Virus record (IMG/VR): IMGVR_UViG_3300025732_000016 | Source of the DNA: a virus | Taxonomy: Duplodnaviria > Caudoviricetes | DNA length: 64,000 bases | Strand: one strand, 5' to 3' | In this document: piece after piece, positions 33,351-52,819 of the stretch | Layout of the letters: each line of letters opens with the position of its first letter | Position numbering within the stretch: position 1 is the stretch's first letter | The notes under the pieces: generated by a model | The model's database searches: none | Told to the model about the DNA's origin: nothing | The model's input: only the letters and a program-made list of their open reading frames with translations | Program-made: the position numbers and the translations under genes

Positions 33351-33371
33351 ACGTGAGGCCAGCAGTTAAGG

Positions 33372-35266: not shown

Positions 35267-35296
35267 AAGACATTGTTGACAATTAGCGCAGATTGT

Positions 35297-35725
35297 TCAA
35301 GGTTCTTGTCTGTCAGCCATCGATCTGTAGATTTTCCTCTTCAAGCCAGTAAGAGAGTACTCATGATCTCGAGAACAGTAGAAGACAGGAATCCCAAGAT
35401 CATCGCCCGTGTACTTCTTCCCGATGTAGTCTGACCCGAGTATCCTAACATCAATGTGATCGGCCCACTGTCTCAGAAGCTCATAGAGTTCCGCTTCAGT
35501 ACAGTATCGCCACACCTCGTCGACGTCTCTCAGTGAAAGCAGAATCTCGGACCTCTCCTCCCATGTCTGGACTGGCTTACACTTATCAGGACGATCCACG
35601 GTCGGGTCGTCCTGCAGTAGAACAATCAACTGATCGCATGCTGTTTCTTTTGACTCTTTGAACATTCGAACATAGCCCGGGTGGATCAAGTCAAAAGACC
35701 CTGCTATCACTCCTCTTCTACTCAT
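35297..35725 (-). CDS. Cytidylyltransferase family (TagD/RfaE-like) nucleotidyltransferase
   Basis: AGSFDLIHPGY (HxGH variant), PVQTWEERSEIL, GSDY, SRDHEYSLTGLK. Confidence 0.85.
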   Translation of the reverse strand: MSRRGVIAGSFDLIHPGYVRMFKESKETACDQLIVLLQDDPTVDRPDKCKPVQTWEERSEILLSLRDVDEVWRYCTEAELYELLRQWADHIDVRILGSDYIGKKYTGDDLGIPVFYCSRDHEYSLTGLKRKIYRSMADRQEP

Positions 35726-37666: not shown

Positions 37667-38589
37667 ATGGTAACACCTCGAACACGAGGGTATCTTTCTG
37701 TGAACGCTTTTATTGTCTCTCGAAGTCCATCACGAAGCGGTGTGTACTCACCCTTCCATCCAAGAGAAAGAAGTTTCTCGTTTGATGACGGCTTCTGGTA
37801 CTGGCCATCAGGCTTGCTCTTGTCGAAATTTCCTCCGCCCTCGTAACCGATCTCTTCAGCGATCATATTAGCGAGTGCCATGATAGAGACCTGCTCAGGA
37901 TTCCCGATGTTGATAGGTTCTTCTCCGTCATAGTTCTCGGCTAACCACAGGATGATCTTTGCGGCATCACGAGCAAACGTGAACTCTCTCAGGGGCTTGC
38001 CGCTCCCCCAGATATCGACATGATCGTAACCGTAGATCTTGGCCTCATGAAACTTCCTGATGAGAGCAGGTATCACGTGTCCGCTGTTGAGGTCGTAGTT
38101 GTCATTAGGACCGTAGAGATTATTCGGAATGACAGAGATGAAGTTGCAACCGTGTTGCTGGCGGTAGGCTCGAGTCTGTACTTCCAGCATTCTCTTTGCG
38201 TAGGCGTATCCGAAGTTTGATGGGTGCGGAGGACCCAAGTGAAGCTGGTCCTCCGTCAGAGGATACTTCACGTAGGGAGCGTCTGGGTAGATGCAGGTTG
38301 AGAGGACAGAAACAAGCTTGAGACCAGATTCCTTGCAGGCTCTCATGACATTCATATTCATCTTCATGTTGTCATCAAAGAAGTCTGCTACAAAATCTGT
38401 GTTGGCCTTGACACCGCCAACACGAGCCGCGCAGTGAATGACGGTAGCAGCGTGACCCGGGTCTAGAGATGTGATTACCGAAGCAGACTCTGTGAGATCG
38501 CAATCTTTCGAAGAGATCCCTGTTGAAGAATTGTGAAGGGCAACAATCTCGCTTCCAAGAAGTCCAGTCGAGCCAGTTATCAGATGCAC
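37663..38589 (-). CDS. fcl: GDP-L-fucose synthase
   Basis: [66 protein letters not shown] start at 38589 with a GGGAG RBS (ORF track starts at 38604). Confidence 0.95.
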
Positions 38590-38629
38590 GGTGATCTCCC
38601 ACATTTCGCAAGATACAGAAGTTCAACTC

Positions 38630-39385
38630 TCAGGTATCAACAATCTCTTCGCTATGGAAGAGAAGATCCCAGAAATATTCAAACATCCAGCCGAAACCCT
38701 CACCGTTTGGCATTCCGCCGTACTGCTCCATGACTTTCTCGCTTACCATTGCAGCAGGGTTGTATCCGTGGTTTCCAACGCAGAAGCCTGTGAAGTATTT
38801 GCTGTTGTCAAACTTGTCGAGACATTTGAGATACACGCTTTTCTCATTCTGGAGTATGAGATGCTTTGGCACAGCAAAAAGACCATGTATCCCGACTTTG
38901 TATTTCTTCGGTAAGTCTTTGTCAAAAAGCTCTCTGTAGAGAGAAAGATGGTTACCGTAGAAGAAGTTTACTCTTCGAAAGTTCTCATCGTCAAGCTGCT
39001 CTTGAAAGAACTTGTTCTGCTGTTCTACTTTGTAAGAGAAATTGTGATAATCTCTCTCACCAAGATTCTTGAGCATGCTCAAGAGAGCAGGTTGATGGTC
39101 GAACGGATTCCCTTGAATAAAAGCAGTTGTTTCTGCTAAATTTTCATAATTCTTCACTATGTGATAGAGATACGTGTGAGATTCTCTTCCAACGTTTGGA
39201 AGATCACAGTGCAAGATGCTTCCTTCGCGCCTATAGACTGGTACGCGGTCAAACTCTCTTGCACTCAGTGAATTGTCTTTGTGATACACGAAGACGTTGT
39301 ACTCACTCTCGAGCTCGTGTATCCACCTTGTGTCCTCTCTATAGTGAGCCACTACCAAGTCTTTCTTTTTCAAATTAGCTCTCAC
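38630..39385 (-). CDS. DUF3431-family protein (GT-A-like, function unknown)
   Basis: LVVAHYREDTRWI, LPNVGRESHTYLYHIVKNYENLAETTAFIQGNPFDH. Confidence 0.8.
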   Translation of the reverse strand: MRANLKKKDLVVAHYREDTRWIHELESEYNVFVYHKDNSLSAREFDRVPVYRREGSILHCDLPNVGRESHTYLYHIVKNYENLAETTAFIQGNPFDHQPALLSMLKNLGERDYHNFSYKVEQQNKFFQEQLDDENFRRVNFFYGNHLSLYRELFDKDLPKKYKVGIHGLFAVPKHLILQNEKSVYLKCLDKFDNSKYFTGFCVGNHGYNPAAMVSEKVMEQYGGMPNGEGFGWMFEYFWDLLFHSEEIVDT

Positions 39386-40956
39386 TTTTTTGCGAAGATG
39401 TAATCTTCAACGACAACATAATCGAGCTCTGTGTTGTCAAGAACGTACAGAGCATCTTCTATTGTAGTGAGGATCGGCAATCCGCGAATGTTGAATGACG
39501 TGTTCAAAAGAACCCCATGTCTCGAAATTTTCGAGAACTCTGTAAGAAGTTCATAGAACTTCTTGTGTGAATCGCTAGTGACAGTTTGCAATCTTGAAGT
39601 CCCATCGGCATGAGTGATCGAAGGCAGCAGATTCTTATACTCGTCTTTCACTCTCGGAGCAAAACCCATGTATTCTAGATTGCTGTAGTCTCGAGTCTCA
39701 AAGTATCGTGGAGCATCTTCTAGTTTGCAAAAGGGAGCAAAGGGTCTATACCACTCCCTAAACTTGACCTTTGAGTTCAAGATGTCTTTCATCTCGAGAA
39801 TGCTTGGGTCGCAGACTATACTTCTGTTACCAAGAGCACGAGGTCCAACTTCCGAGTCTCCATACACGAAGCCGATGATCTTACCTTCCTTGAGCAACCT
39901 GGCTGTCTCTGCGGCAGTAGTCTTTCTAGCGCCTCTCCTTTCAACAATTTCACCGAGACTTCCTTTGTCTAGCAAGGGAATACCATTGTAAGTTACGTTA
40001 ACTCTTTCTTGGGGTCTCGTCATCGAGAATAAAGCTCCCAGCGAAAGACCGCAATCATTCGGATTGGGAGGAACAAAAACTTTCACACCAAATTCGTTCC
40101 TGATTCTCTCATTCAAGAGAACATTCAACCCACCACCGCCCGTGATTATGACTGGGTAGTTCGGAAACTTTTTGACAATTTCCGTGAACACGCTGATGAA
40201 CGCTTCTTCAAATGCTTTTTGAGCAGTAGCAGCCAGATCGTAAGCTTCCTGCTTATCAAACTTTGCATTTGCCATGGGGTTCTTCCATGGATCCTCAGAG
40301 TTTAGAAGACTAAGGCCGGTCAACTTTGACAGCTTTTGATAGTCTCTATCAAAGAAGAAGTCTCTGAAGTGTGGGAGAAGACTCTCTCGAGGGGAACCAT
40401 AAGCGCATAGACCCATCATCTTTCCAGCTAAAGAAAGCTGGTGTCTACTCTTTTCGCTTATCTCCTTGAGTATCGATGCGCAAAGAAGGTAACCTCCGCC
40501 AAAATCTGATTTTACGTTCTCTATGAGCTGGACGTTGCTTCTGCTACCATAGTAAATGTTGAAGAATCCGTCACTGCCACCACCATCAAATGAGAAGATA
40601 ATCGATTCATAGAAGGGAGACTGGTAGAAAGCGCTGGTAGCATGACACTCGTGATGCTTTCCAACCATGTAGATATTTTGAGTCTCAAAAACTCTTGAAA
40701 GAATGCTGACATCGTTAATCCCGCCATCAGCTGCAATGGCAACTGCGTCAAACCCGTCAAACTGCCAGTTGTTTATAGCGATGTCCTTACACTGACGTAA
40801 AAGAGACTCAATCTGTTCACCAGAATTGTCGACGTGAAGTCTAAAATAGCGCTTCTTCACCAAGCGCTCAAGTTCAATTACATGATATCTCTGGGTCTTG
40901 GAGTTGTAGAACGAAACGTTCGCGTCGTGACCAGCATAGATGCTTACGATTCTCAT
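39382..40956 (-). CDS. Carbamoyltransferase, NodU/CmcH/TobZ family
   Basis: GHDAN, ELERL..KR, HHECHATSAFYQSPF, FSFDGGG, AGKMMGLCAYG, GGGGLNV, PNDCGLSLG, EVGPRALGNRSI, KFREWYRPFAP, LLNTSFN. Confidence 0.95.
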   Translation of the reverse strand: MRIVSIYAGHDANVSFYNSKTQRYHVIELERLVKKRYFRLHVDNSGEQIESLLRQCKDIAINNWQFDGFDAVAIAADGGINDVSILSRVFETQNIYMVGKHHECHATSAFYQSPFYESIIFSFDGGGSDGFFNIYYGSRSNVQLIENVKSDFGGGYLLCASILKEISEKSRHQLSLAGKMMGLCAYGSPRESLLPHFRDFFFDRDYQKLSKLTGLSLLNSEDPWKNPMANAKFDKQEAYDLAATAQKAFEEAFISVFTEIVKKFPNYPVIITGGGGLNVLLNERIRNEFGVKVFVPPNPNDCGLSLGALFSMTRPQERVNVTYNGIPLLDKGSLGEIVERRGARKTTAAETARLLKEGKIIGFVYGDSEVGPRALGNRSIVCDPSILEMKDILNSKVKFREWYRPFAPFCKLEDAPRYFETRDYSNLEYMGFAPRVKDEYKNLLPSITHADGTSRLQTVTSDSHKKFYELLTEFSKISRHGVLLNTSFNIRGLPILTTIEDALYVLDNTELDYVVVEDYIFAKK

Positions 40957-41630
40957 ACACGCGCCTCCTTCTCGTTGTTTGCAGCTCTAAGAACAAAAAC
41001 ATGGTTCCCCACGCCTCCAGCGTGAGTTTTCCAATTCTCCTTTAGACCGCTTAGGTGTGGAGTTGACTTTTCTACTCTCCAGCCGTTCGACTCAAAGCTG
41101 CGCTTCCACCACGTCTCATCCTCAGCTATCAAATGAGAAACTTCAGTGTGATACTCTGGGATCCTATACGTACCGTTGTCTCCCATAGGGATAACGCACA
41201 GTAAAGAGGGGGCTACTTTAGCAAGCGTCTTGAGCATGTCACTCAGCTGATCTTCTGTTAAGTGCTCGAGCATGTCCTTCACTACAACGTGAGTGTAATC
41301 TCGAGAAGGTCTCTTCTCCCAGTCTTGGCAATTCCAACAACCATCAGGGGCATAAGCGAGTGCATACTCGCTTATGTCACATCCATCAGCCTTGATCTCT
41401 AGTATTCTGAGAGCTTTGACCAGAAACCCCTTCGCGCAACCAACATCAAGAACGTAACTTTTCTCATCGAGCTCTAGATAGTCAGCTATTGCGATTGCTT
41501 CCCTAAGAGTTCGGCGTGGCATCCACCGATAATTCTCTAGCCATCCCTTGCCGGACTCTTTGCCTCTTTCAAAGTAGTCCTCATCATAAAAGTCACCAGT
41601 GAAAGGAGACCTCGAACTTTCATTACTCAT
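40953..41630 (-). CDS. Class I SAM-dependent methyltransferase
   Basis: FYDEDYFE, VLDVGCAKGFLV, GCDISEYA, DMLEHL. Confidence 0.9.
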   Translation of the reverse strand: MSNESSRSPFTGDFYDEDYFERGKESGKGWLENYRWMPRRTLREAIAIADYLELDEKSYVLDVGCAKGFLVKALRILEIKADGCDISEYALAYAPDGCWNCQDWEKRPSRDYTHVVVKDMLEHLTEDQLSDMLKTLAKVAPSLLCVIPMGDNGTYRIPEYHTEVSHLIAEDETWWKRSFESNGWRVEKSTPHLSGLKENWKTHAGGVGNHVFVLRAANNEKEARV

Positions 41631-42682
41631 TATGCGAACTCGTTGTGGCTGGTAGGAGTAAGAGCGTCATCTATCAACTCATTTTGAGCGGCGTACTTGC
41701 AGTATGAGCAAGCATGATATCTTCTGACTCCGTTAGAATCTTGAACTCCATTATAGAAGTCAATGATTCCGTTTATATCACAAATTTTGAACTCTGGGTT
41801 CACTTTGTAGGAGTTTTCTACTGCCATCTCTGCGCAGGGACAAACGTAAACATTCCCATCAGTGAAGACAAACGGCTTGAAATTGTGCATGTAGCAGTGA
41901 TTGTTTCTTCTCTCCCCCTTCCAGTTGAAGTCTGACAGGAACGCGTACTTAAGGTTTCTTCCTTCGATGTCAACTCTTATCCTTTCGAGATCCTTTCTGA
42001 TCGTGTCAGCGTCTTTGATAGAGTTGAAAGCTATTCTAGTAGGAATCTTTTCCCTTTCCACAAATTCGAGCATTCTCTCAAAATGCTCAGGCGTTTGCTT
42101 GTTCTTTGACAGCTTCTTACCCTTCGTCTCAGACCAGTTTCCATGGATGTTCGGATTTTGTGAAGTCTCATGAGCTAGATCCCAAATGTAAGCAGCGCCA
42201 ATTTCAAGATTGGGATACTCTCTCAGAGACGCGATATCATATTCGTAGCCCTCTGTGAAACCGTACATCCCTAGTCTTATCCAAGTGAGCTTGTCCCAAA
42301 CTCCTCCGACCTTGTGCCACTTGTTGATCATCGTTCCGTTGGTTACGACACCAACTTTTAGACCCTTTTCATAAGCATAGTTTACTACTCTGCCAAAATC
42401 TGGGTGGAGAGTGGGCTCTCCACCACCGGTCAACTCCATCCCTGTTGCTCCAAGCTCAACGAAGGAGTCGATTGCCTTCTTCATTTGATCAAGTGTGAGC
42501 ATTTCCTTAAGAGCTCGATTCGCAAAGCAACAAAAGCTGCACGTCAGATTGCAAGGATTGCAAGGAGACATGTGAAACATGACTGGAGAGGGTCTCTTGC
42601 CGTCCTGCAAGAGTTGTATCTTTGGTAGATGCTTCAGTAGCTTCGAAACGTTAGAAGTGTATGTCTTTCCCTCAACCATCAA
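41630..42682 (-). CDS. Radical SAM protein with C-terminal SPASM/twitch-like cysteines
   Basis: CNLTCSFC (CX3CX2C), LTGGGEPTLHP, VVTNG; C-terminal CY...DGNVYVCPC...CSYC. Confidence 0.92.
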   Translation of the reverse strand: MMVEGKTYTSNVSKLLKHLPKIQLLQDGKRPSPVMFHMSPCNPCNLTCSFCCFANRALKEMLTLDQMKKAIDSFVELGATGMELTGGGEPTLHPDFGRVVNYAYEKGLKVGVVTNGTMINKWHKVGGVWDKLTWIRLGMYGFTEGYEYDIASLREYPNLEIGAAYIWDLAHETSQNPNIHGNWSETKGKKLSKNKQTPEHFERMLEFVEREKIPTRIAFNSIKDADTIRKDLERIRVDIEGRNLKYAFLSDFNWKGERRNNHCYMHNFKPFVFTDGNVYVCPCAEMAVENSYKVNPEFKICDINGIIDFYNGVQDSNGVRRYHACSYCKYAAQNELIDDALTPTSHNEFA

Positions 42683-43377
42683 TAGTTCTCCTTATAGCCG
42701 TGAACGATGGGGTAATTTCGCCAATCAGGCTGTCTATGAACCTCAGCCAGCCACTCGGCAGCCTCATACTCAAACCCGCATCTGCTGAAGTGAAATGTCA
42801 TGTTACAGTCAAAAGCGCAAATGCTTCTGTCGCTAATCTCACTCGAGATTGGAGGATTATAGAACGTCGTGTCATGCTCTTCAAGAGAATAGTTCACTGC
42901 ACTTTCATAGACCTGCATGAAAGAACTTGACTTATAGACACTACCACCGCAGGCTCCAAACCTGCCTGATCCTACACAGCCGCGATTTCTGAGTATCTCG
43001 CTGATTCCTTTCGGAGGCATTTGGTTGGCAGTCGGACCCTTTATATCGAATCCATCAAAATCAACTCTTTTCTGCACTAGAACATCATCCTCAAGAATGA
43101 TGATGTAATCTGTCTGAGCATGCTCGACAGCCATCTTGTGGCGATTCCAGGCTTCGATTGTTCTTTCAGAGTTGTAGAAACCTCTGTCAACACCCAAAAT
43201 GTTGTGACGCATGATAAATTTCGCGTCATAGACTTCAGCAATGTCTGTGAAGTCGCTGCCGCCGTCAGAGATCAATAGCACCGGACTGTCCGGATAACAG
43301 GCACGAAAACTCTTCATGGCCGCTTCGGTAGCTTTCTTGTTCTTGTAAACTTGGAAGAAAGCGCCCAATGTCTTCAT
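42679..43377 (-). CDS. GT-A fold glycosyltransferase (GT2-like)
   Basis: SFRACYPDSPVLLISDGG, YIIILEDDV (DXD-like), CGGSVY. ATG at 43377 with GGAG RBS (ORF track starts at 43443). Confidence 0.7.
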   Translation of the reverse strand: MKTLGAFFQVYKNKKATEAAMKSFRACYPDSPVLLISDGGSDFTDIAEVYDAKFIMRHNILGVDRGFYNSERTIEAWNRHKMAVEHAQTDYIIILEDDVLVQKRVDFDGFDIKGPTANQMPPKGISEILRNRGCVGSGRFGACGGSVYKSSSFMQVYESAVNYSLEEHDTTFYNPPISSEISDRSICAFDCNMTFHFSRCGFEYEAAEWLAEVHRQPDWRNYPIVHGYKENY

Positions 43378-43414: not shown

Positions 43415-44230
43415 CTATTGGGCCATCTGGTAAAATAACTCAAAGTTTCTGTGAACAGTGTTGACGTTGACTAAAACGAGAAAATCACTTACTCTTTCCT
43501 TGAGCAGATATCCGAGAGCTATCTGGTCGTTCCCAAGAAGATCATTCGGTAGCATTTTGCACGTTAGCACTTCATCAATCATCTTATGAAGTTTCTTTGC
43601 TCCATCACGATCGGTACCGAACAAGCCTCCCATAACATAAGAACGATTGTCGTTGAAGTATTCGGTTGGAAGTCTTTCTGCAGAGAACAGATCAGAGTAT
43701 GGGTAGACATAGGCTTGAATCAAAGACTTTCCCGGATGTTTGCTGATCTCATTCATGAACTGATTGCCTGGGAAATCTTTGCTGGAGCCAAAGTCAAAGT
43801 CTCCAACCAACCGAGAGAAGCCTGCGTCCATCCACACAAAGTAATCAGTGTCAAAATAGTTTTGCTCTGCAGCGTTGTTCAACCACGGGAACTTTGAAAA
43901 CTGGATTATCGAATAGAGGCTGGTCTTGCACTCGATTCGATGTGGATCCTTAACTTTAGCTTGATACTCAGCTTTGTTAAGAAGCTCATCCATCTTTGGC
44001 TTGAGATGAAAGTATGGAACTTCATCGAGTCTTTGGTTGATGATTTTAGTTTCTCTGCCTTCTGGTCTGTTCTCGAGTATGAAAGAGTTTAGCGACTCCT
44101 CACAATAAATGACCATGGAACAACTGAGCTTGAGAGTCTTGGAGAACCACTCGTAGTACTCTTCCATCCCTCTACCGTCGAACTCCTTACGACCGATGTC
44201 GAAGAGAGCAGTCACAACTGTCGCTTTCAT
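43415..44230 (-). CDS. WlaTC/HtrL-family glycosyltransferase
   Basis: TVVTALFDIGR, MVIYCEE, YSIIQFSKFPWL...NYFDTDYFVWMDAG, GGLFG, NDQIAL. Confidence 0.8.
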   Translation of the reverse strand: MKATVVTALFDIGRKEFDGRGMEEYYEWFSKTLKLSCSMVIYCEESLNSFILENRPEGRETKIINQRLDEVPYFHLKPKMDELLNKAEYQAKVKDPHRIECKTSLYSIIQFSKFPWLNNAAEQNYFDTDYFVWMDAGFSRLVGDFDFGSSKDFPGNQFMNEISKHPGKSLIQAYVYPYSDLFSAERLPTEYFNDNRSYVMGGLFGTDRDGAKKLHKMIDEVLTCKMLPNDLLGNDQIALGYLLKERVSDFLVLVNVNTVHRNFELFYQMAQ

Positions 44231-45190
44231 TTACTCTCCATGTCTGCTCATTATCTGTAGCACTTTTGGCACGTACACATCAGAAACTATGTGAGACCAG
44301 TCGAAGTTCTTTGCGTAATCTCTTATCTGCTCTCTCATCTTCACAGATGCGTTTCTATTTTCTATAATCGCGCTCTCTACGAGACGTTTGTCGTCGATGT
44401 CTTTTTCTGGTATTACGCTGATAAAAGGCAGACTAGTGTCAAGATTTGCAGATGCGTATTCGGATATCACGATCCCAAGACCCGCTGATAACGCCTCTAG
44501 ACAAACGAGAGGGTGAGCTTCTCCGTCGCTCAACAGGACCAGGTTCGCAAAATCTGTAAGACCTTCATAGATTTGAGACTTCTTCCACTCCCCAAGATAG
44601 TCGGGAGAAGAAACATCGAATTTTGGGTCTACGCAATTTCCAACGAACTTTAGACCAGAGACTCCTTGAAATTGTGACTGCCTCTTCCTCGGGTCTATCT
44701 TCGCAAGATAGACAGATTCATTGGGTTTGTTGCACTTCTCTGTGAAGTGAAATAGATCAGTCCTGACTCCGTTAGGTATCACATGTAGCTTCTCTTGTGG
44801 AATGTTCGCCTTCTTGTAAACTTCTGCGATTCCTGAGCTGAGACAGAACACGTCAATGTTCGCATTGACAAAGCCCCAAAAGATGTTTCTATAGCTTGGG
44901 TCCCACCTGTTTGGTTGTTCTAGATAGCCATAGTGGCTTGTGACCGCTACTTTCTTACAATGAAAGTACTGAGACAGAAACACGAACTCATCATATTGAA
45001 TGTGTACGAAGTCAGGTTGCAGACTGTTCACTATGCCTACGATTAGATTCGGGTCTCTTGTGTTGACTATCTCTACACGATGACCAAGACTTTCTAGCGT
45101 TTTTCGATAGTCCTCGATGAGAATCTCAACAGCTCCCCAGCCTTGAGGGGGTATTGACATTGCTCCAGGACCGACTATGCAAATCTTCAT
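44231..45190 (-). CDS. Glycosyltransferase, GT4-like
   Basis: GPGAMSIPPQGWGAVE, VIPNGV, LAKIDPRKRQ, SDGEAHPLVCLEALSAG. Confidence 0.87.
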   Translation of the reverse strand: MKICIVGPGAMSIPPQGWGAVEILIEDYRKTLESLGHRVEIVNTRDPNLIVGIVNSLQPDFVHIQYDEFVFLSQYFHCKKVAVTSHYGYLEQPNRWDPSYRNIFWGFVNANIDVFCLSSGIAEVYKKANIPQEKLHVIPNGVRTDLFHFTEKCNKPNESVYLAKIDPRKRQSQFQGVSGLKFVGNCVDPKFDVSSPDYLGEWKKSQIYEGLTDFANLVLLSDGEAHPLVCLEALSAGLGIVISEYASANLDTSLPFISVIPEKDIDDKRLVESAIIENRNASVKMREQIRDYAKNFDWSHIVSDVYVPKVLQIMSRHGE

Positions 45191-45915
45191 CTAACACCTG
45201 CGAATCTTGGAAACTCTTTCATATCTTTGTCAAGGTGAACGAACTTCGTCGGAAAGTTGTTCCTTACGTGTTCATATCCGTGTTGTGGTTGCGCAAACCC
45301 AGGGTGTAAGGTCTTTACAGAACTCTTTCTTTGTAAGAAGTATTTGTTCATGTGAGACTCATCGTGCCAAACAGCTACGATACCTTTCTCATAGTCTTCA
45401 TCAACTTTTGCCTCGAGCTCCTCTACCATCTTCACAAATTCAGTAGACTTACCGCCCCAAAGACAGCCTTGCCAGTAGTTGCTAAGATCGTAGTATCCGT
45501 CGAAGATGTTTGCTAGAGATCTGGTGTCAGTTTCGAATGTCCCGATCTTACCAATGAACCCTGGGTGTTGCACTCCGACGAGCTCATCAAGAACTTCTTC
45601 TCCAACTTCGTCGATACACCATAAGTCTGCGTCGACGAAAAAGACGTAATCGAAATCAAGCAATCTATCTCTTGCTTGATTAATGAACTTGAAGCGATGT
45701 AGAGTGATGAAGGGCCATTTTGCGTGTTCAATTTGATGAAGAGAGACTCTTTCTCTCTTGAATGTCGAATCAGAAACATCATCAGTGAACACAACATAGT
45801 TCTTCTCGAACTTTCGCAAGAAGTTCTTCTCTATTCCTTCGTAGAAGCCATCGAAGAACTTTCGATATCCTGCTGTGCCGATGAAAATTATGCCAACGTT
45901 CACAATCTCACCCAC
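45187..45915 (-). CDS. GT6 family alpha-1,3-Gal/GalNAc transferase (ABO-like)
   Basis: IFIGTAGY, NYVVFTD, KWPFITLHRF, FFVDAD (DXD), HPGF, YWQGCLWGG, AVWHDESHMNKYF. Confidence 0.92.
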   Translation of the reverse strand: MGEIVNVGIIFIGTAGYRKFFDGFYEGIEKNFLRKFEKNYVVFTDDVSDSTFKRERVSLHQIEHAKWPFITLHRFKFINQARDRLLDFDYVFFVDADLWCIDEVGEEVLDELVGVQHPGFIGKIGTFETDTRSLANIFDGYYDLSNYWQGCLWGGKSTEFVKMVEELEAKVDEDYEKGIVAVWHDESHMNKYFLQRKSSVKTLHPGFAQPQHGYEHVRNNFPTKFVHLDKDMKEFPRFAGVR

Positions 45916-46661
45916 CCAGGCTCATAAATAGTCTCCCAGGTCTTGGGACCTTTCTCCCCAAACCATTGATTCGGAGAGATTACGGCTTTGCTTCCCGAGA
46001 GCCAAGCTCCCCACCAGCTGAATGATGAGTTTGCGATCACGTGGATCGGACACATTGACATCATGCAAAGCGAAACTTCTTGTGAAGAGTCATCGACAGC
46101 AATTTGTTCTGGCAGATTCTCTTTGCACCACTTCGGATCATCGCTAAAAGCCAGAATTCTTGCGTTTGGTATGTTCTGAAGAACGACACTAATCGCGCTA
46201 TTATAGTAGTCTGAGTTGAGATTCTTATGATAACTCGAAAGGCTAAGATAGTCTCCCCTGCGTATGTGTAGGCTGCAGATTGGGCTTCCGTCCATGGATG
46301 AAAGCCTTTCTCTTGCAACTTCAACGGTTTCTTTCTTGAAGGAGAAAATCTTTCTCAAATGGTCTTGTACGTGATTGAAGTATCTCCCAGACTGGAAGTA
46401 ACCATAGAGATCAGTCTCATCTGGTACGAGAAACACGCTAGGGTCAAACTCAAAAACTCTCTCTTGATATTGGGTGAGATTTTGAGTTGTGTCTCTGTCA
46501 GAGACCTGTACTCCTTCCATCTCAAAAACTTTAGTGAGATCTTGTTCAGTTGGCAAGCAAACCTTGTAGCCTCTGGCGAAACCAACAGAGTAGAGAGTGG
46601 CAAATTGGAACATCTGGTTCCCAAGTCGCCCATTCTTACCGATACTTTGCGAAGTCAGCAT
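45900..46661 (-). CDS. GT11 alpha-1,2-fucosyltransferase
   Basis: GRLGNQMFQFA, GYFQS, HIRRGDY, FSDDPKWC, IANSSFSWWGAWL. Confidence 0.95.
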   Translation of the reverse strand: MLTSQSIGKNGRLGNQMFQFATLYSVGFARGYKVCLPTEQDLTKVFEMEGVQVSDRDTTQNLTQYQERVFEFDPSVFLVPDETDLYGYFQSGRYFNHVQDHLRKIFSFKKETVEVARERLSSMDGSPICSLHIRRGDYLSLSSYHKNLNSDYYNSAISVVLQNIPNARILAFSDDPKWCKENLPEQIAVDDSSQEVSLCMMSMCPIHVIANSSFSWWGAWLSGSKAVISPNQWFGEKGPKTWETIYEPGWVRL

Positions 46662-47332
46662 GTAATACCATACACTCTAGCGTAGTGATGTGCAACAGCT
46701 CTTGGAACTCTTGAGTCATACTTCGGATTGTGAACGTGATGGTAGGTGATCAAGCTCTCTTGTAGATTGCCGAGTCTAGCGTGGGGTAACATTCTCATCC
46801 ACAGATCCATGTCCTCGGCGAAAGGATAGAACTCCCAGTAAGAGCCTGATTTCTCGATCAAGGAACTTCTAAAAACGACAGACGGATGCCCAATAGGGTT
46901 TCGACTGTTGAAGAGCCAAGAACAGCACTCTTCATGAGTTAGCGGGTAAGAAGTGGATGAAGTCCCACTAGACTCTGAGACTATCATTTGTGTACCGAGA
47001 ACGTCAACTTCTCCTGTTTCTAAGACTTCTATCTGCTTTTTGAGTTTGTGTGGTAACCACTCATCGTCAGCATCTTGCCTCGCGATGTATTTGCCTTGTG
47101 AAATTTTGATTCCTACGTTTAATGCAGGGACTATTCCTGGCTGAGATTCAACAACTTTCACTCTAGAGTCTTTGATAGACTTTGCAATTTCGAGAGTTGA
47201 ATCTACGCTACCGTTTACGATGATGATGACTTCAATCTCTCGATAATCCTGCTTCACTACGCTGTCAACTGATCTCACAAGAGTCTCTGCAGAGTTTCTA
47301 GCAGGAATGATGACCGAGACGAGTGGATTCAT
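46655..47332 (-). CDS. GT2 glycosyltransferase
   Basis: VSVIIPARN, ALNVGI, YIARQDADD, HPSVVFR, EDMDLWMR. Confidence 0.92.
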   Translation of the reverse strand: MNPLVSVIIPARNSAETLVRSVDSVVKQDYREIEVIIIVNGSVDSTLEIAKSIKDSRVKVVESQPGIVPALNVGIKISQGKYIARQDADDEWLPHKLKKQIEVLETGEVDVLGTQMIVSESSGTSSTSYPLTHEECCSWLFNSRNPIGHPSVVFRSSLIEKSGSYWEFYPFAEDMDLWMRMLPHARLGNLQESLITYHHVHNPKYDSRVPRAVAHHYARVYGITC

Positions 47333-49251
47333 CTAGATCTCTCTCTCCAACCGACCATTGAAGCCGGCTGTTCTCTTCTAATCTTCACGCTGGGAGTGGG
47401 ATTGTTGAAGTCAAGTCTCTTGTGGAAAATCCATCCTCCCATTTCACTTTCCATCTTCGCTGCAAGACTTCTGATTTCTTCTTCAGTAACTTCCGACCAT
47501 GACTTTTCGAAGAACATGTTATTCTCAGGAACGTCTTCTTGAGTTCTATTGTAGAGACTCATCCAGTGCTTTGACCAGTAATTTTTGTAAGTGTAGATCT
47601 TTCTCTCTATGTCATACCACGAGTAGTGATAAACTCCTGGCAGCTGCTCAGTGACAGCGTTAATCCACGATTCGTAATAAGCTAAAGCTTCTTCATTGCG
47701 CAAAAGCGCATGTTGTCTAGAGATCTCTCCTTCTCGAGACATAAAGGTCGCAAAGGGAACACTTTCTCCAGTGTCGCTGTAAATGTAATCGCAGCCATCA
47801 GAGCCAGAAGAATACATTGAGCCGTCAGCATCATAAGCTCTTTGGTCTAGTGGGACGCCATGAGTGATTCTTGGATTGTTGCGACTAAGCCTCCATTTCC
47901 ATGGGTTGACGTCAACTCTTACTTTCCCTTCTCGACCCCAAAATTCGACAAGTGGTAATGCGATAATGTCAACTTCTCTTGGGAAGCTCTTAACAAGATT
48001 TCTAATCTTCGAGTAATCTTCTTCATGAACTACCTCGTCGATATCAACTTGCCAGCAGAAGTCACCCGTGCAACGCTCTCGAGCAATCGCTTTCTGCTGT
48101 CCGTCATAAAGAGCGAATCTCTTGTCGTCCCAGTCTCTCGCGTGTTGAAACGGCTTCAGACGAGGCTCAGACTCAGCGAGCTCCTGCAGCTTCTCCCAGG
48201 TTCCGTCCGTTGACCCACCGTCAACGACGATGACTTCATCACAGAACCCGAGAAGAGAGTTGATGCTCTCAATCCAGGGATACCTCTGCTCAATGCAGTT
48301 CCTCGTCTGCGTGTAACCGCTAATCTTCGGTTCCCACTCCATTGCGCTCCTGATGCCGTTCCAGAATGTTTCCCTGGCGGCGTAAAGGTAGGATTCAGTG
48401 TCGAGTGGATCGCTGGACGTGAACCACTCCTCATTTGCATGCTCGACGTTGTCATTGGTGTGAAGCTTGCAACCGAGCAGCTTAGCCTCGATGACCATTC
48501 GAGGGCAAGTGTCGCCGCCCTTTGGGAGGTAGACGAGACCCTCAGCAGTCGAAAGCTTCGTGAGGAAGTCTCCAGGAGAGACTCCGTGGACTATCTCGTA
48601 GTCATGCCCCTGTGACTTGCACCACTCTACTGCGTCATCGACTCCCTTGATCCAGGACGTTGAGCCCAATACAATCCAGCCCTTTCTCTCAGCATTTGAG
48701 TTCTTCTCCCTGAGCTGCTTGAGAAGAACCCAGAAGTCCTCTTCGAAGACTGAGGACAGGACACTCTGTGGCACGTTCTCGAGAAATGGGAAGAGCTTCC
48801 AGTATCTCTTCTGCTGTCTCTCAGACATCCACCAGAGAGACTTTGCTCCAAGGTAGAAAGTCGAGGCGAGCTTGCCCGCACTGTCGTTCTGACAGTCACA
48901 GGGCTTCTTCTCTGCTACCTCGTGCTTCTCAGGAGAACGGTACTTGCAGAACTTGTAGTCGTACTCGAGCACTGAGTACTTCATGTTAGCAACTATTGTT
49001 GGGATGAGGTCTCTGTTCAACCCCGCCCAGTTCCCAAAGATCCAGAACTTGCTGTGACCCTCCTCAAGGTTCTGAAGAGAGACGTCCTTCGTGTGGAGTT
49101 TGAATACCCTGAATGGTGATGACTTTATGAGAGCCTCAGTTGTGAGCTCCGCGCCACCCACCAGGTCCTCAGCAAAGAAGTCTGCGACGAACACAACATC
49201 GCAGACGCTCGGAACGTGCTTGTTTTGAATTTGAAATTGGCTACTGAACAT
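47329..49251 (-). CDS. Two-domain glycosyltransferase: N-terminal GT-B-like half fused to a C-terminal GT2
   Basis: GGAEL, EYDYKFC, KG...DTCPRMVIEAKLLGC; then ISGYTQTRNC, VIVVDGGSTDGT, WQVDIDE. Probable ATG at 49251 (ORF track starts at 49278). Confidence 0.82.
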   Translation of the reverse strand: MFSSQFQIQNKHVPSVCDVVFVADFFAEDLVGGAELTTEALIKSSPFRVFKLHTKDVSLQNLEEGHSKFWIFGNWAGLNRDLIPTIVANMKYSVLEYDYKFCKYRSPEKHEVAEKKPCDCQNDSAGKLASTFYLGAKSLWWMSERQQKRYWKLFPFLENVPQSVLSSVFEEDFWVLLKQLREKNSNAERKGWIVLGSTSWIKGVDDAVEWCKSQGHDYEIVHGVSPGDFLTKLSTAEGLVYLPKGGDTCPRMVIEAKLLGCKLHTNDNVEHANEEWFTSSDPLDTESYLYAARETFWNGIRSAMEWEPKISGYTQTRNCIEQRYPWIESINSLLGFCDEVIVVDGGSTDGTWEKLQELAESEPRLKPFQHARDWDDKRFALYDGQQKAIARERCTGDFCWQVDIDEVVHEEDYSKIRNLVKSFPREVDIIALPLVEFWGREGKVRVDVNPWKWRLSRNNPRITHGVPLDQRAYDADGSMYSSGSDGCDYIYSDTGESVPFATFMSREGEISRQHALLRNEEALAYYESWINAVTEQLPGVYHYSWYDIERKIYTYKNYWSKHWMSLYNRTQEDVPENNMFFEKSWSEVTEEEIRSLAAKMESEMGGWIFHKRLDFNNPTPSVKIRREQPASMVGWRERSR

Positions 49252-49291
49252 GCAGAATAGTTGTCTTCTGCGCGTCACCAGTAAACAGAAG

Positions 49292-49334
49292 AAGACTCCA
49301 CCTCAGGGCTTGAACAACCGAAAGGCGGAGTCTT
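49292..49334 (-). terminator. 12-bp RNA hairpin between the tail-fibre and glycan operons (terminator or processing stem)
   Basis: Minus-strand RNA AAGACUCCGCCU-N19-AGGUGGAGUCUU pairs fully with one G-U wobble and is followed by CUUCUGUUU. A second 8-bp stem (tcagttct/agaactga) lies at ~49344-49369. Confidence 0.55.
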
Positions 49335-49379
49335 AATAATTGTTCAGTTCTTCTTCAGTAGAGAACTGATACTCAATCT

Positions 49380-51689
49380 CTAAGACTGCTCATCCAGCTC
49401 AGGGACTCTCTCAAGGAGGAACTTATACCGCTTCCCAGTCTTGTTGAACCTGATCGAGAGGAAGTCTGGCTCTTCTATCAGAGTGTAGTCTCCCCTCTCA
49501 TTTCTGAGATGAAGATCGCCGGTGTAGATGTTAGCCCAGCGAGCAGTTGAGCTTCCAAGGTCCAGCGTTCTGTCACCGCTCGGTAGTATCGTTGTGCTCA
49601 CCTTCGCATTTGCGAACGATACTTGATCAGTGTTGATGTCATTTCCGAATGTGGTGTTTCCATTGACGACGAGACTGCTGTTGACAGTGGTGGTTCCAGA
49701 CGCGTTTCCAATTGTCAGAGTTGTTGCAGCTCCAGCAAAGTTCACAGTCGTAGCGACAGTATTGAAGACGCTCTGCGTTGTCTGGTTACCGACTAATGTC
49801 CCACCCTGAATCGTTGTTGTTCCGCCATTTGCTCCGATTATGACTGATGAACCGCTCAGCGTGAGTTCCTGTGCAACCGATGTGTCTCCTGCTGCGATCC
49901 TGAGTCCAGCACCTGCGCCAATTGTACCGCTTACTACACCGATGGGCACACCATGTCTCTCGAGCTGGAAACCATTGTTTCCAGCATTCAACCGTATGAG
50001 CGCACCGCTGATGACCAGGTTCTTGTTGCTAACAGCGCCGAACACCGCTGGGTTGCCAGCTCCGCCATCTTTGAAGTTGATGTACGAGAAGCCGTTGACT
50101 TGGAAGTCAACAATACCTCCGGTATTGGGGTTGAGCTCGATTGTGCTGCCCTTGGACGTGAGCTTTGATCCATCCGAAGAAGTTACGAAAGCTGTCGGTC
50201 CACCAAGCTCAAGCTTACCAGCCCTAAACGCCTGATAATCAACAACATTTATCGCGGCACCCACAGCGGCCGCTGTGGGTGTTGTATCAGTTCTCGCAAC
50301 CGTGAAGCCATCCGCGCTCTCATCCCAGAACATTGCAACGCTGTTCTCTCCGACGAGACCTCCTATGAAACCTCTATCGCTCAACGAGCCTGCAACCGAA
50401 CCAGAAGCAAAGCCCAGGCCTATCACTGGGTCCTGGATCTCCATCACTGTGGAGTCGATCGTTGTCGTTGTTCCGCTGATGTAGAGGTCACCCTTGACAA
50501 TCAGATTCTTGTTGACAGTCAGGTCATTGTTGACAGTTGTAGTTCCTGTGGCTGCACCGATATTGACAGTTGTTGCGGCACCTGCAACGCTGAGAGTCGT
50601 GACAGTCGTATTGAGAAGGTCAAAAGACGTTTGAGTGGAGGTGATCTTGTTTGTACCAGCGCCCGACGTGCCATTGACTGCGAGGCTTCCTGCCACCGTT
50701 GTCGTGTCAGAAACAGCATTTCCAAGTGTGGTGTTACCGTCAACTGTAAGATCATTGTTGATCGACGTTGTACCGGTGGCAGCTCCAATCTCAAGCGTAG
50801 TTGCAGCACCGGCAAAATTGACCGTGGTTGCAGACGTATTGACGAGATTGAAAGTGGTAGATGTCGTTGTTAGATCGCCGCCGTTGACTGCAAGATCATT
50901 CGAAGCTGAAACCACACCGACGAGAGTTGAAGTCCCACCCACAGTGAGGTTCGCACCGGCCTGCAGGTCACTGGAACCACTGATCACTCCGCCGTTGCTA
51001 ATAGAAGCGATAACCCCCGATGCAGTCTTGATGCTGAAGGACCCAGAGGTTATTACATTGCCACCGAATAAGGTGGCATTTGACCCAGCAGTGCCGACAC
51101 CTGCATTTGAACCAGAGAAGTAGAAGACGACGTCCGTGCCCTTGTCACTCGCAGCAGTGATGGTCTCGCCAGTCCTTGCGCCCGTGAATGCAACAGTTCC
51201 TGAGTTGTAGATGACTCCCGCTGCCGTCTCAGTGAAGAAGTTCGAGCCACCACCACCACCAGTCGAAGCAATCGTAACTGCACCGTTAGAGCCCGTTGTG
51301 ATCGTAACGTTGGTACCTGCAATGAGGTAGCTTGTTCCGTCTGCGAGCTTCGTGAGCGAACCGGTGAGACCAGCTGTCGTCGTCATTGCGCCGGATACGA
51401 CGAGTCCGTTCCTTGCAATGACTTGATCACCAATGTAGAGCGGTGATCCACCGAACAGTGTGCCGCTGATTACGACGTCACCGCCGAACACCGTTGTTCC
51501 TCTAACTGTGTAATCAGGGCTTGCAGCCGGAGAACCCGGAGAACGAGCCGCTATGTTACCTGAGACAAAGAATACTGCGTCTACGCCAGGCAGCGAAGGA
51601 TAAGTGGCATTGGGCCTGTTGGCAACAATGACCGATCCTGTGATTGCAACTATCGAGTTTGACCCCGATACGCTTCCAACTAACGCCAT
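49380..51689 (-). CDS. Tail fibre/fibre-like virion protein (769 aa)
   Basis: G/S/T/A/V-rich beta repeats; C-terminal LDLGSSTARWANIYTGDLHLRNERGDYTLIEE..L...NKTGKRYKF module typical of fibre proteins of large myophages. Confidence 0.8.
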   Translation of the reverse strand: MALVGSVSGSNSIVAITGSVIVANRPNATYPSLPGVDAVFFVSGNIAARSPGSPAASPDYTVRGTTVFGGDVVISGTLFGGSPLYIGDQVIARNGLVVSGAMTTTAGLTGSLTKLADGTSYLIAGTNVTITTGSNGAVTIASTGGGGGSNFFTETAAGVIYNSGTVAFTGARTGETITAASDKGTDVVFYFSGSNAGVGTAGSNATLFGGNVITSGSFSIKTASGVIASISNGGVISGSSDLQAGANLTVGGTSTLVGVVSASNDLAVNGGDLTTTSTTFNLVNTSATTVNFAGAATTLEIGAATGTTSINNDLTVDGNTTLGNAVSDTTTVAGSLAVNGTSGAGTNKITSTQTSFDLLNTTVTTLSVAGAATTVNIGAATGTTTVNNDLTVNKNLIVKGDLYISGTTTTIDSTVMEIQDPVIGLGFASGSVAGSLSDRGFIGGLVGENSVAMFWDESADGFTVARTDTTPTAAAVGAAINVVDYQAFRAGKLELGGPTAFVTSSDGSKLTSKGSTIELNPNTGGIVDFQVNGFSYINFKDGGAGNPAVFGAVSNKNLVISGALIRLNAGNNGFQLERHGVPIGVVSGTIGAGAGLRIAAGDTSVAQELTLSGSSVIIGANGGTTTIQGGTLVGNQTTQSVFNTVATTVNFAGAATTLTIGNASGTTTVNSSLVVNGNTTFGNDINTDQVSFANAKVSTTILPSGDRTLDLGSSTARWANIYTGDLHLRNERGDYTLIEEPDFLSIRFNKTGKRYKFLLERVPELDEQS
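49640..50870 (-). repeat. Three ~45-aa internal repeats in the tail fibre
   Basis: TTFNLVNTSATTVNFAGAATTLEIGAATGTTSINNDLTV / TSFDLLNTTVTTLSVAGAATTVNIGAATGTTTVNNDLTV / QSVFNTVATTVNFAGAATTLTIGNASGTTTVNSSLVV (coordinates approximate). Confidence 0.85.
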
Positions 51690-51736: not shown

Positions 51737-52819
51737 CTAATCAAGAGGTTGAAGCATCATCTTGTAGCGCTTTCCTGTCTTGTTGTTGATGACGCAGAGA
51801 AACTCTTCTTCCTCAAGGATTGTCCAGTCTCCACGATCGTTCCGCAGGTGTAGGTCGCCCGTGTACACGTTCTGCCAGCGGAGTGCAGGAGTTCCAAGAT
51901 TGTAGGTGAAGTCGGAGTTGGGAGTGATTGAACCCTTCAAGCCAATCGATCCCGTGATCTGCATTGAGCCCGACATGAAGATGTTTGTTATGCCACCGGT
52001 ATCAGTCGTTCCAATCCTGATATTCGTTGTAACACCCGGGTCTGCCCCAAGACCGAAGTTCAAGTTCTTTGTGCTACCAACCGCGGTGGCACCACACGCG
52101 AGGTTCAAAGTAACGTTGCCAGTCCTCGCAGAAGCGACGGTGAACGTGTGTGAAGTGCTGCCCGCAGAGTTTCCTATTGAGATGCTAGAAGCTGCACTGC
52201 CCAGAGAAATTGTCGATGCATTAGTGGGAAAAACGGTGACTGTGCTAGCGTTAGTTAGGAAGTCACCGCCATTTACTGTGAGGTCACCTTCAATTGCGAG
52301 ATTACCATTTGACTGCGTGGCAGTGATAGTTGCGTTACCGCCTGAGTCCTTTAGAGTGATGCTACCTGAGTAGACGGTATTTCCGCCGAAGAGAGTAGAC
52401 TTGGTGCCGTCTCTTGAACCAGACACATAGAAGAAGACGTCCGCTCCCTTGTCACTTGGAGAGTCAACAGAGCTTTCACCACCTCGGAATGCTGCAGATC
52501 CAGTGGTGAAAATTGATCCGTTTGTCGTTGAATCGAAGAATTCGTCGACTGTTAGAGTGACACCGGTCAGAGTGCCCGAGATGTGAACGTCGCCACCAAA
52601 TGTAACCCTGTCACTGCCGCCAGTAGAGCCAGAGATGAAAAGCCACGTGTCTGAACCTGTACCCGCAAGTATGAGGTTGCCAGTGTCGACGGTGACCCCA
52701 TCGTTCCCAGCAGCCCCTGATCCGATGAGCAGAAGTCTCGGGTTTGTTGAGCTCCCCGATGCGATAAGCCTCTCTGCACGTATGCCAGAAGACTTGAAAT
52801 CTGGTGGTCTTGTAGCCAT
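51737..52819 (-). CDS. Tail fibre/fibre-like virion protein (360 aa), paralog of 49380-51689
   Basis: Shares the FF.....G.I..sG..AF.G.......SDKG.DV.FY.SGS module and the C-terminal YNLGTPALRWQNVYTGDLHLRNDRGDWTILEE...NNKTGKRYK module. Confidence 0.8.
   Translation of the reverse strand: MATRPPDFKSSGIRAERLIASGSSTNPRLLLIGSGAAGNDGVTVDTGNLILAGTGSDTWLFISGSTGGSDRVTFGGDVHISGTLTGVTLTVDEFFDSTTNGSIFTTGSAAFRGGESSVDSPSDKGADVFFYVSGSRDGTKSTLFGGNTVYSGSITLKDSGGNATITATQSNGNLAIEGDLTVNGGDFLTNASTVTVFPTNASTISLGSAASSISIGNSAGSTSHTFTVASARTGNVTLNLACGATAVGSTKNLNFGLGADPGVTTNIRIGTTDTGGITNIFMSGSMQITGSIGLKGSITPNSDFTYNLGTPALRWQNVYTGDLHLRNDRGDWTILEEEEFLCVINNKTGKRYKMMLQPLD

Follow-up and report, generated by a model that had tools for sequence, protein, structure and literature searches.

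Overlapping GT2, GT11 and GT6 genes in a freshwater phage point to an uncharacterized sub-clade of family 6 glycosyltransferases

Results and Discussion

A run of overlapping glycosyltransferase genes

We analyzed a window of 64,000 nucleotides from the virus record IMGVR_UViG_3300025732_000016 (Duplodnaviria; Caudoviricetes) of IMG/VR, focusing on three consecutive glycosyltransferase (GT) genes of the families GT2, GT11 and GT6. A previous sequence-only reading had described these genes as a pathway, in biosynthetic order, for a glycan resembling the ABO blood-group antigens, with its own supply of GDP-fucose. All genes of this part of the window lie on the minus strand, and the trio is arranged head to tail as genes 2 to 4 of a run of 19 genes that extends from 49251 to 30922 with a largest gap of 30 nt. 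The trio consists of a GT2 (46655-47332, 225 aa; Pfam PF00535 Glycos_transf_2, 8e-30), a GT11 (45900-46661, 253 aa; PF01531 Glyco_transf_11, 9e-28) and a GT6 (45187-45915, 238 aa with the GTG at 45903 as start; PF03414 Glyco_transf_6, 1.5e-26), and all three Pfam scores are far over the gathering cut-offs. The junctions were read directly. The gene for a 649-aa two-domain GT that opens the run is joined to the GT2 gene by ATGA, the GT2 and GT11 genes share ATGCTGA in a 7-nt overlap, and the GT6 gene is joined to the GT4 gene that follows it by ATGA. Between the GT11 and GT6 genes, the junction reads GTGA when the GTG at 45903 is taken as the GT6 start, which is favored by the Joint Genome Institute (JGI) gene calls and by the alignment to residue 1 of BoGT6a; with a start at 45915 the overlap would be 16 nt. 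The start of GT11 must be at 46661 because the N-terminal GRLGNQMFQFA motif is otherwise lost, and the JGI gene call for this gene (237 aa) indeed truncates that motif. The consecutive, overlapping arrangement of the trio was thus borne out by the Pfam matches and the junctions, as was the location of the GDP-fucose genes gmd and fcl in this run, on the strand of the trio.

In the order of transcription, the run comprises the two-domain GT, GT2, GT11, GT6, a GT4, an HtrL/YibB-family protein, a GT-A-fold protein, a radical S-adenosylmethionine (SAM) enzyme, a methyltransferase, a carbamoyltransferase, a DUF3431 protein, fcl, gmd, a UGDH-like dehydrogenase, a cytidylyltransferase, the UDP-galactopyranose mutase gene glf, a nuclease and two further GT4 proteins. 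This glycan island spans about 18 kb and contains at least 10 GT-like genes.

GT11 and the supply of GDP-fucose

The GT11 protein scored 97.8 bits against PF01531 (cut-off 23.9) over profile positions 35-295 of 298. Its translation holds GRLGNQMFQFA, HIRRGDY, FSDDPKWCKEN and SSFSWWGAWL, and we take GRLGNQMFQFA, HIRRGDY, FSDDPKW and SSFSWWGAWL to be the signature motifs of family GT11. Its cyanophage homologues are annotated as alpha-1,2-fucosyltransferases; a phmmer search against PDB matched no solved GT11 structure. Judged from its sequence, the protein is most likely an alpha-1,2-fucosyltransferase-like enzyme.

The two genes of GDP-fucose synthesis are genuine by their profile and homology matches. 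The product of gmd, a GDP-mannose 4,6-dehydratase (36686-37666; Pfam 2e-129), scored 438 bits against the equivalog model TIGR01472, the cut-off of which is 415. The fcl gene (37663-38604) encodes a predicted GDP-L-fucose synthase that matches the human enzyme FX (4e5y) with an E-value of 9e-75 and keeps the Ser/Cys and YxxxK motifs as STCIYP and YAYAKR; against the NCBIfam model GDPFucSynFcl it scored 253 bits, which is under the cut-off of 500. Neither manC (NTP_transferase, PF00483) nor manB (PGM/PMM, PF02878) was found in the 81-kb IMG/VR record, a virus fragment with a CheckV completeness of 23%, and the phage therefore seems to supply the last two steps to GDP-fucose only. The proposed supply of its own thus holds for the conversion of host GDP-mannose and does not extend to the earlier steps.

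A GT6 protein with altered substrate positions

The GT6 protein scored 93.4 bits against PF03414 (cut-off 25). In phmmer searches it matched BoGT6a (6e-25) and the human ABO transferases (9e-24), while the match to alpha3GT was weaker at 2e-13. Its AlphaFold (AF2) model has a predicted local distance difference test (pLDDT) value of 91.4 and superimposes on BoGT6a (4ayj) with template-modelling (TM) scores of 0.85-0.89 and on human GTA and GTB with scores of about 0.83. The closest reviewed protein in Swiss-Prot is WbnI of Escherichia coli O86 (TM 0.84-0.86, 30% identity). The catalytic Glu, E186, lies in the motif WHDES at 183-187 (E303 in GTA, E192 in BoGT6a) and the C-terminal Lys, K230, in H-L-x-K (K346 and K231, respectively); both are invariant among 120 database homologues. 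The sequence score, the GT-A fold, the catalytic Glu and the C-terminal Lys place the protein in family GT6 of CAZy, by which it would catalyze retaining alpha-1,3 transfer to an acceptor with beta-linked galactose (Gal) or N-acetylgalactosamine (GalNAc).

Substrate contacts described for BoGT6a and GTA (PMC3516806, PMC3961637, PMC4202792) were transferred to the phage protein via a HMMER alignment. Those to UDP and the donor sugar are kept in T14, Y17 and R74, the metal site reads D95-A-D97 and is invariant in the homologues, and the acceptor residues H117, G119, F120, Y147 and W183 are also kept. The ABO-like DXD motif (DAD) that had been pointed out is present in the translation as 'FFVDADLW', but it is not special to this gene, since DXD is the defining trait of 'clade 1', under which name the minimal GT6 enzymes of phages were described in 2012 (PMC3516806). 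The window's protein fits this clade in both respects: besides the DXD motif it has a minimal catalytic domain of 238-242 aa that ends about 12 residues past the conserved Lys, without the membrane-binding C-terminal domain.

At the acceptor positions A1 and A2, the His (H233/H122) and the small residue (G/S235, G124) of the known enzymes correspond to H117 and G119 in the segment QHPGF. This combination of His and Gly represents the fucose-requiring state, as opposed to the Gln and Trp of alpha3GT (PMC3516806), and the characterized relatives other than alpha3GT, namely GTA, GTB, BoGT6a, WbnI and PaGT6, all need an acceptor with fucose (Fuc) in the form Fuc-alpha-1,2-Gal (PMC3516806, PMC4202792). 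Two other positions differ from the known enzymes. At Thr245/Thr134, where these have Thr, the phage protein has Glu128, and at A7 (Ala343/Ile228), where they have Ala or Ile and alpha3GT has Trp, it has His227. The latter lies three residues before K230 and is bigger than Ala or Ile but smaller than the excluding Trp of alpha3GT.

The donor positions are altered as well. At position 266/155, which is Leu in GTA, Met in GTB and Ala in BoGT6a, the phage protein has Gln149, and at 268/157, which is Gly or Ala in the known enzymes, it has Cys151. It thus falls into none of the known residue types (L/G or A/G for GalNAc, M/A for Gal). The donor segment YWQGCLWGG is present as had been noted and differs from those of GTA and GTB. 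With a side chain similar in size to Met or His, Gln would be expected to crowd the N-acetyl group, and this would favor a plain hexose. Because Gln and Cys replace the Leu/Ala and Gly of the GalNAc transferases, a non-acetylated hexose (Gal or glucose) or something new appears more likely than GalNAc as the sugar that is added. The suggestion of an unusual donor is therefore reasonable, but the signature proved to be shared by a whole clade rather than peculiar to this gene, and it comes together with an altered acceptor site.

A glucose donor could have been read from matches to the NCBIfam model 'family 6 glucosyltransferase' (NF041524), but we discarded this reading, as proteins of all motif types score below the cut-off of 250: the GT6 proteins of the window, P-SSM2, S-CAM9, DSL-LC02, B23 and ACG-2014f and one Parachlamydiaceae protein reach 171-216 bits.

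The QGC-type sub-clade

The residues Q149, C151, E128, H227 and K230 are all invariant in the 120 homologues. A different, BoGT6a-like pattern of Y[YF][AC]GGF.GG with ALxK is found in the P-SSM2 GT6, in all Parachlamydiaceae GT6 proteins and in most IMG/VR hits. The Parachlamydiaceae are the family of PaGT6 from Parachlamydia acanthamoebae, the one DXD-type enzyme with an assay, which is a metal-dependent GalNAc transferase that needs the H antigen (PMC3516806); 15 Parachlamydiaceae genomes with GT6 served as a stand-in for the PaGT6 sequence itself. The window's GT6 resembles the P-SSM2 GT6 and PaGT6 in its general build (a minimal domain of about 230-240 aa with DXD and no membrane-binding domain; PMC3516806). 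It differs from the P-SSM2 and Parachlamydiaceae proteins at the positions that bear on specificity, having Y-W-Q-G-C (in YWQGCLWGG) instead of Y-x-A-G-G, H-L-D-K instead of A-L-x-K, and Glu at the position of Thr245.

In a FastTree phylogeny of 172 GT6 sequences, the QGC-W group comprises 35 leaves with a support of 0.82, and 32 of these carry the motif. It takes in the Kyanoviridae proteins of S-CAM9, B23, ACG-2014f and DSL-LC02, which have HPCH, together with those of the window's own lineage, which have HPGF. By alignment and tree, the window's GT6 thus falls in a separate, near-monophyletic and uncharacterized sub-clade, which is a new point. Both types occur in one cluster in two contig pairs (four loci; L029/L030 and L036/L077), where the AGG-type and the QGC-type genes are 0.02-1.4 kb apart, and this arrangement argues for different activities. 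The literature searched contained neither an assay of a phage GT6 nor an identified product of these clusters.

Conservation of the gene neighborhood

To define the neighborhood of GT6 genes, the island proteins were compared by tblastn with GT6-bearing loci, comprising 80 loci from IMG/VR, 5 from cultured phages and 97 from bacteria or archaea. In 25 of the 85 viral loci and in 7 cellular loci, a GT11 gene precedes GT6 at a distance of at most 150 nt, and in 11 further cellular loci it lies just downstream; taken together, GT11 adjoins GT6 in 18 bacterial loci. Among the non-redundant viral loci with a QGC-type GT6, every one (19/19) has a GT11. This linkage is far beyond chance and is strong evidence for a functional link between the two genes, in agreement with the translationally coupled pair seen in the window. 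The functional link of the pair to this particular GT2 is moderate. There are 28 loci in which GT2, GT11 and GT6 genes share a strand within 4 kb, yet five different arrangements are seen among them, and the order GT2-GT11-GT6 is confined to the window's lineage (L006-L014 and L024; 39-60% identity) and one bacterial contig. The 'biosynthetic order' is accordingly a lineage-specific trait and not a conserved feature, the same families being found elsewhere in four other orders. Within the lineage, GT2 is kept beside GT11-GT6 at 39-46% identity.

The gene downstream of GT6 showed a clearer pattern. It encodes a GT4-type protein (44231-45190; Pfam Glyco_transf_4, 3e-10), here called GT4a. Homologues of it with 40% identity or more occur in 16 of the 19 viral loci that have a QGC-type GT6, versus none of 50 loci with the AGG type. 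By this distribution, GT4a is a specific companion of the QGC-type GT6, which is also a new point.

Comparison with known systems

The gene set gmd, fcl, GT2, GT11 and GT6 is known from public cyanophage genomes since P-SSM2, the cluster of which reads gmd-fcl-GT2-GT2...GT11...GT6. In DSL-LC02 the cluster has gmd...fcl followed by the GT-A protein, HtrL, GT4, GT11 and GT6, and S-SCSM1 was published with gmd, fcl and an alpha-1,2-fucosyltransferase (PMC9602691). The view that the complete ordered pathway is what sets this phage apart could not be upheld, because P-SSM2, DSL-LC02 and S-SCSM1 already hold the gene set. The closest cassettes are those of the Kyanoviridae S-CAM9, S-PRM1, B23, DSL-LC02 and ACG-2014f, which have the same QGC-type GT6 at 37-42% identity, a GT11 gene directly upstream with an overlap, and homologues of GT4a and of the HtrL/YibB-family protein, a putative lipopolysaccharide (LPS)-type glycosyltransferase (43415-44230; Pfam PF09612, 4e-22), at 37-50% identity. 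In DSL-LC02, the cluster with GT11-GT6 also contains gmd and fcl. These cassettes differ from the window in their order ([GT-A]-HtrL-GT4-GT11-GT6 in DSL-LC02 versus GT2-GT11-GT6-GT4-HtrL-[GT-A] here), in the HPCH of their GT6 proteins where the window has HPGF, and in that the carrier phage is unrelated.

The O antigen locus of E. coli O86 has WbnJ (GT2), WbnK (GT11) and WbnI (GT6), the same three CAZy families as the phage, together with GDP-fucose genes. This locus is part of a Wzx/Wzy pathway with an initiating transferase, while no Pfam family of an initiating phosphoglycosyl transferase, flippase or polymerase was found in the phage island. The reaction logic would be alike, with H-type fucosylation followed by alpha-1,3 addition (PMC4202792). 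Further differences are the Gln and Cys at the donor positions and the lack of manB and manC matches in the phage, and the metal site, as bacterial GT6 enzymes of the BoGT6a/WbnI type have NXN and most are metal-free (PMC4202792) whereas the phage GT6 has DXD. In this respect it resembles the human enzymes GTA and GTB, with which, as with BoGT6a, it also shares the GT-A fold, the Glu of WHDES, residues of the His233/Gly235 type and the C-terminal Lys; unlike GTA and GTB, it has no stem or transmembrane region. A parallel of another kind is the glycosylation of mycobacteriophage virions (Freeman 2023, via PMC12619734), which likewise involves soluble GTs encoded next to structural genes and no lipid-carrier machinery; these systems use far fewer GTs, with two in Maravista (PMC11256854).

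A possible A/B-like branch within a larger glycan

On balance, and with little more than even confidence, we favor the reading that GT11 and then GT6 build an A/B-like branch from phage-made GDP-fucose within the larger glycan specified by the island. By homology, Gmd and Fcl would turn host GDP-mannose into GDP-L-fucose. GT11 would then move the fucose, most likely in alpha-1,2 linkage, onto a beta-galactose-type residue of the growing oligosaccharide, and the metal-dependent (DXD), retaining GT6 would add an alpha-linked hexose to the same residue, beside the fucose, as the known members of the two families suggest. This would yield a branched determinant that has the architecture of the histo-blood-group A/B antigens in a larger tailored glycan, the underlying chain of which would be built by the GT2, GT4 and HtrL proteins that accompany the pair. 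The weakest step is that GT2 may supply the galactose.

The features of GT6 that speak for an A/B-like fucosylated glycan are its fold, the DXD motif, the catalytic Glu, the His and Gly at A1 and A2, and WbnI as the nearest reviewed protein; this much of the earlier proposal stands, but with Glu and His in place of Thr245 and Ala343 the exact acceptor is not assured. Several further points weigh against the reading we favor. Glu128 and His227, both invariant in the clade, are found in no characterized GT6 that depends on fucose, and with these two divergent acceptor-site residues the acceptor may therefore not be the plain H-type disaccharide. The donor sugar is not deducible from Gln149 and Cys151, and the QGC sub-clade has no assayed member. 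The specificity of GT2 is likewise not readable from its sequence, and the gene order is not conserved. GT2 belongs to an inverting family and has the motifs DADD and AEDMD, but its NCBIfam and PDB matches are restricted to the generic N-terminal (nucleotide-binding) half of GT2 proteins, so that a role as a beta-1,3-galactosyltransferase cannot be derived from them.

This bears on a competing explanation to which we give less than even, but still considerable, weight: the island may specify one glycan assembly without a linear GT2 to GT11 to GT6 sequence, in which GT2 adds some other sugar elsewhere, the order of the three genes is coincidental and only GT11 and GT6 act consecutively. The five orders among the 28 loci point in this direction, with the window's order occurring in the 9 contigs of its lineage and one bacterial contig only, and so do the identity of the gene directly upstream of GT11 in the Kyanoviridae, which is a GT4 and not a GT2, the role of GT4a rather than GT2 as the specific companion of the QGC-type GT6, and the large number of GT-like genes in the island (at least 10). 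Against it stands that GT2 stays beside GT11 at 39-46% identity across lineage contigs that have diverged to about 50%, and that GT2 homologues with 25-39% identity are also found beside GT11/GT6 in bacterial loci.

A second explanation of similar weight concerns the target, and holds, in line with the classical 'LPS gene' view of cyanophages, that the island remodels the LPS or another envelope glycan of the host during infection, thereby blocking superinfection or the loss of progeny on debris. All characterized prokaryotic GT6 and GT11 enzymes serve the synthesis of O antigen or lipooligosaccharide (PMC4202792), HtrL/YibB and GT4 are LPS-type families, and homologous cyanophage clusters were published as host surface modification, the genes of S-SCSM1 and S-SCSM2R being described as 'cell wall synthesis and modification' (PMC9602691, PMC12801897). 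These considerations have to be set against the make-up of the island, in which no initiating transferase, flippase (Wzx), polymerase (Wzy), ABC exporter, ligase or membrane anchor was found. Its enzymes are all soluble, with no hydrophobic, transmembrane-like segment of 19 residues in any of the 26 open reading frames (ORFs) of the stretch from 28 to 55 kb. The DXD-clade GT6 enzymes P-SSM2 and PaGT6 lack the membrane-binding C-terminal domain of NXN GT6 proteins (PMC3516806), and the window's GT6 is minimal as well with 238 aa. Given the absence of membrane or lipid-carrier machinery, the acceptor would be either a lipid-linked intermediate of the host or a structural protein of the phage, and in the former case the host export machinery would have to accept a many-sugar, tailored unit. 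The island moreover lies inside a virion-structural region, beside two Ser/Thr-rich fibre-like genes directly upstream of it (49380-51689 and 51737-52819, minus strand; Ser plus Thr 24-25%), the products of which are candidate glycosylation substrates. One of them, of 769 aa, carries repeated 'NFAGAATTL.IG.A.GTT..N..L.V.GN' units. Cytoplasmic glycosylation of structural proteins has been shown in mycobacteriophages (cited in PMC12619734). Because a many-sugar unit would need host-specific export machinery to reach the LPS, we lean slightly and tentatively to cytoplasmic glycosylation of structural proteins; the virion would be the likeliest single target without commanding even odds, the host envelope comes somewhat behind it, and some other target has a minor share.

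We regard it as unlikely, though less so than the explanations at the end of this section, that the QGC-type GT6 has diverged in acceptor or donor use to the point of making no A/B-like branch, for example by acting on another residue or using a donor outside Gal/GalNAc, so that the likeness to ABO enzymes would exist at the level of the family only. The four residues Gln149, Cys151, Glu128 and His227 that are invariant in the 120 homologues occupy specificity positions of GTA, GTB and BoGT6a (PMC3516806, PMC4202792), P-SSM2 and all 15 Parachlamydiaceae homologues have Y[YF][AC]GG and ALxK instead, and the contigs with both types side by side suggest non-redundant activities. What makes such a divergence improbable is that His117, Gly119, Phe120, Tyr147, Trp183 and Glu186 are kept and that GT11 is strictly adjacent in the sub-clade. 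More speculative, and quite improbable in our judgement, is that GT6 proteins with QGC-W, His at A7 and Glu at 245 use a donor or a fucosylated acceptor never seen before in the family and, with GT11 and a dedicated GT4, make a 'third kind' of branched, blood-group-like epitope on fibre or capsid proteins instead of LPS; the genes would then be a widespread cassette for virion glycosylation that different aquatic phage lineages share.

That the GTs modify the phage DNA (hypermodified bases) instead of a glycan or protein is highly improbable despite the nuclease gene inside the island, given that the ABO-type sugar-acceptor residues are conserved in GT6 and that the GT6, GT11, GDP-fucose, UDP-galactofuranose and LPS-type families are not known to act on DNA. 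Phage GTs and carbamoyltransferases that modify DNA are known (PMC12619734, citing Pyle 2024).

As a genomic observation, the locus with its GT2, GT11, GT6, gmd and fcl genes is not new: the observation itself was confirmed, and the interpretation first attached to it was borne out in part only. Its value is that it points to a well-defined and widespread GT6 sub-clade with Gln149, Cys151, Glu128 and His227 as candidate specificity residues and with GT11 and GT4a as fixed partners. This makes the questions of the donor and of host surface versus virion directly testable in cultured cyanophages with the same cassette.

Expression signals

A terminator-like hairpin (49283-49335, minus strand) separates the first glycan gene, which starts at 49251 or 49278, from the Ser/Thr-rich fibre-like gene, which stops at 49380. 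RNA folding gave it an outer stem of 13 bp and -27.6 kcal/mol (z = -4.8; a stability reached by none of 200 shuffles), and it is followed by the U-rich run UUCUUCUGUUU. As there is a stable hairpin with a U-run ahead of the first glycan gene, the island may be reached by read-through; the space that follows the hairpin is too short for a promoter. Scans for sigma-70 promoters and terminators over 34-53.5 kb were not clearly over shuffles, and the T4 late-promoter motif TATAAATA gave 0 matches. In lake metatranscriptome libraries of four studies, we found contigs with at least 99% identity scattered over 43.4-49.4 kb, two of which bridge the junction of GT2 and GT11; a contig at the junction of the 649-aa GT and GT2 with less than 31 nt on one side was left out of the count. 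These contigs are short (151-409 nt), so that depth, strand, transcript ends and uncovered stretches are not readable from them. They fit with expression of the island, with the reservation that RNA libraries may carry phage DNA and that the contigs show neither strand nor transcript limits.

The carrier phage and the origin of the island

JGI contigs with lengths of 169 kb and 85 kb carry the same phage, and the runs that contain it are freshwater and lake metagenomes. Baseplate genes of the gp25 and gp6-like types lie downstream of the island, and virion proteins of the PHROG families flank the region. For the gp6-like protein, matches were limited to Microcystis phage Mel-JY01, Flavobacterium phage immuto and an uncultured phage of 484 kb (28-32% identity). 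A megablast search of INPHARED with 9 kb of flanking phage genes gave no match, and blastn with the trio gave nothing beyond short patches of GT11 and GT6 in cyanophages. The carrier is an uncultured large freshwater myovirus, and by these comparisons it lies outside the Kyanoviridae, which is new for such a cassette. The glycan island was probably gained by horizontal acquisition, since the GC content of its core differs from the flanks (0.44-0.45 over 38-48 kb, versus 0.50-0.56 to the right and 0.49-0.50 just to the left). An exchange of cassettes with cyanophages is possible, GT4a being 50% identical to the DSL-LC02 protein.

Other genes of the island

The first gene of the run (47329-49251) encodes the two-domain GT of about 640 aa, for which the longest ORF would begin at the GTG at 49278. 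A Pfam GT2 domain covers residues 338-434 in the C-terminal part, and the N-terminal half looks GT4-like by the motifs GGAE and E-x7-E as read from a consensus sequence. In PDB, phmmer found weak hits to the GT2 domain only, including GmaR at 0.007, and the neighbors of the protein in the Atlas are GT2 proteins from viruses, also with about 640 aa. In 9 related IMG/VR contigs (49-56% identity) the gene immediately precedes GT2-GT11-GT6, and its product could be the starter or the polymerizer of the glycan.

The GT-A-fold protein (42679-43377; 232 aa from Met23 of the ORF) had no Pfam hit. Its AF2 model (pLDDT 75.7) matched, in Foldseek, the catalytic domain of UGGT (GT24) and GT6 structures with TM scores of 0.55-0.62 and E-values of about 1e-7, and the protein is predicted on this basis to be a GT-A-fold enzyme of the retaining, GT24/GT6-like type. 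Homologues are found in the same cassette in DSL-LC02 and several IMG/VR contigs, and the DSL-LC02 cassette also has a homologue of the HtrL/YibB-family protein.

By Pfam, a tailoring block (38630-42682) encodes the radical SAM enzyme, the SAM methyltransferase, a NodU-type carbamoyltransferase and the DUF3431 protein, and the rest of the island (30922-36689) encodes the UGDH-like dehydrogenase, a small cytidylyltransferase, glf, a PD-(D/E)XK nuclease and the two GT4 proteins. The UGDH-like protein (35718-36689) has only 323 aa, with the NAD-binding and central domains matched and no match to a C-terminal domain family, and may therefore be a truncated or atypical enzyme. The PD-(D/E)XK nuclease gene lies within the glycan island at 33379-34176. 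The order gmd-nuclease-GT4-GT4 is kept in the related loci L010, L011 and L014 and partly in L012, and nuclease-GT4-GT4 is kept in L040.

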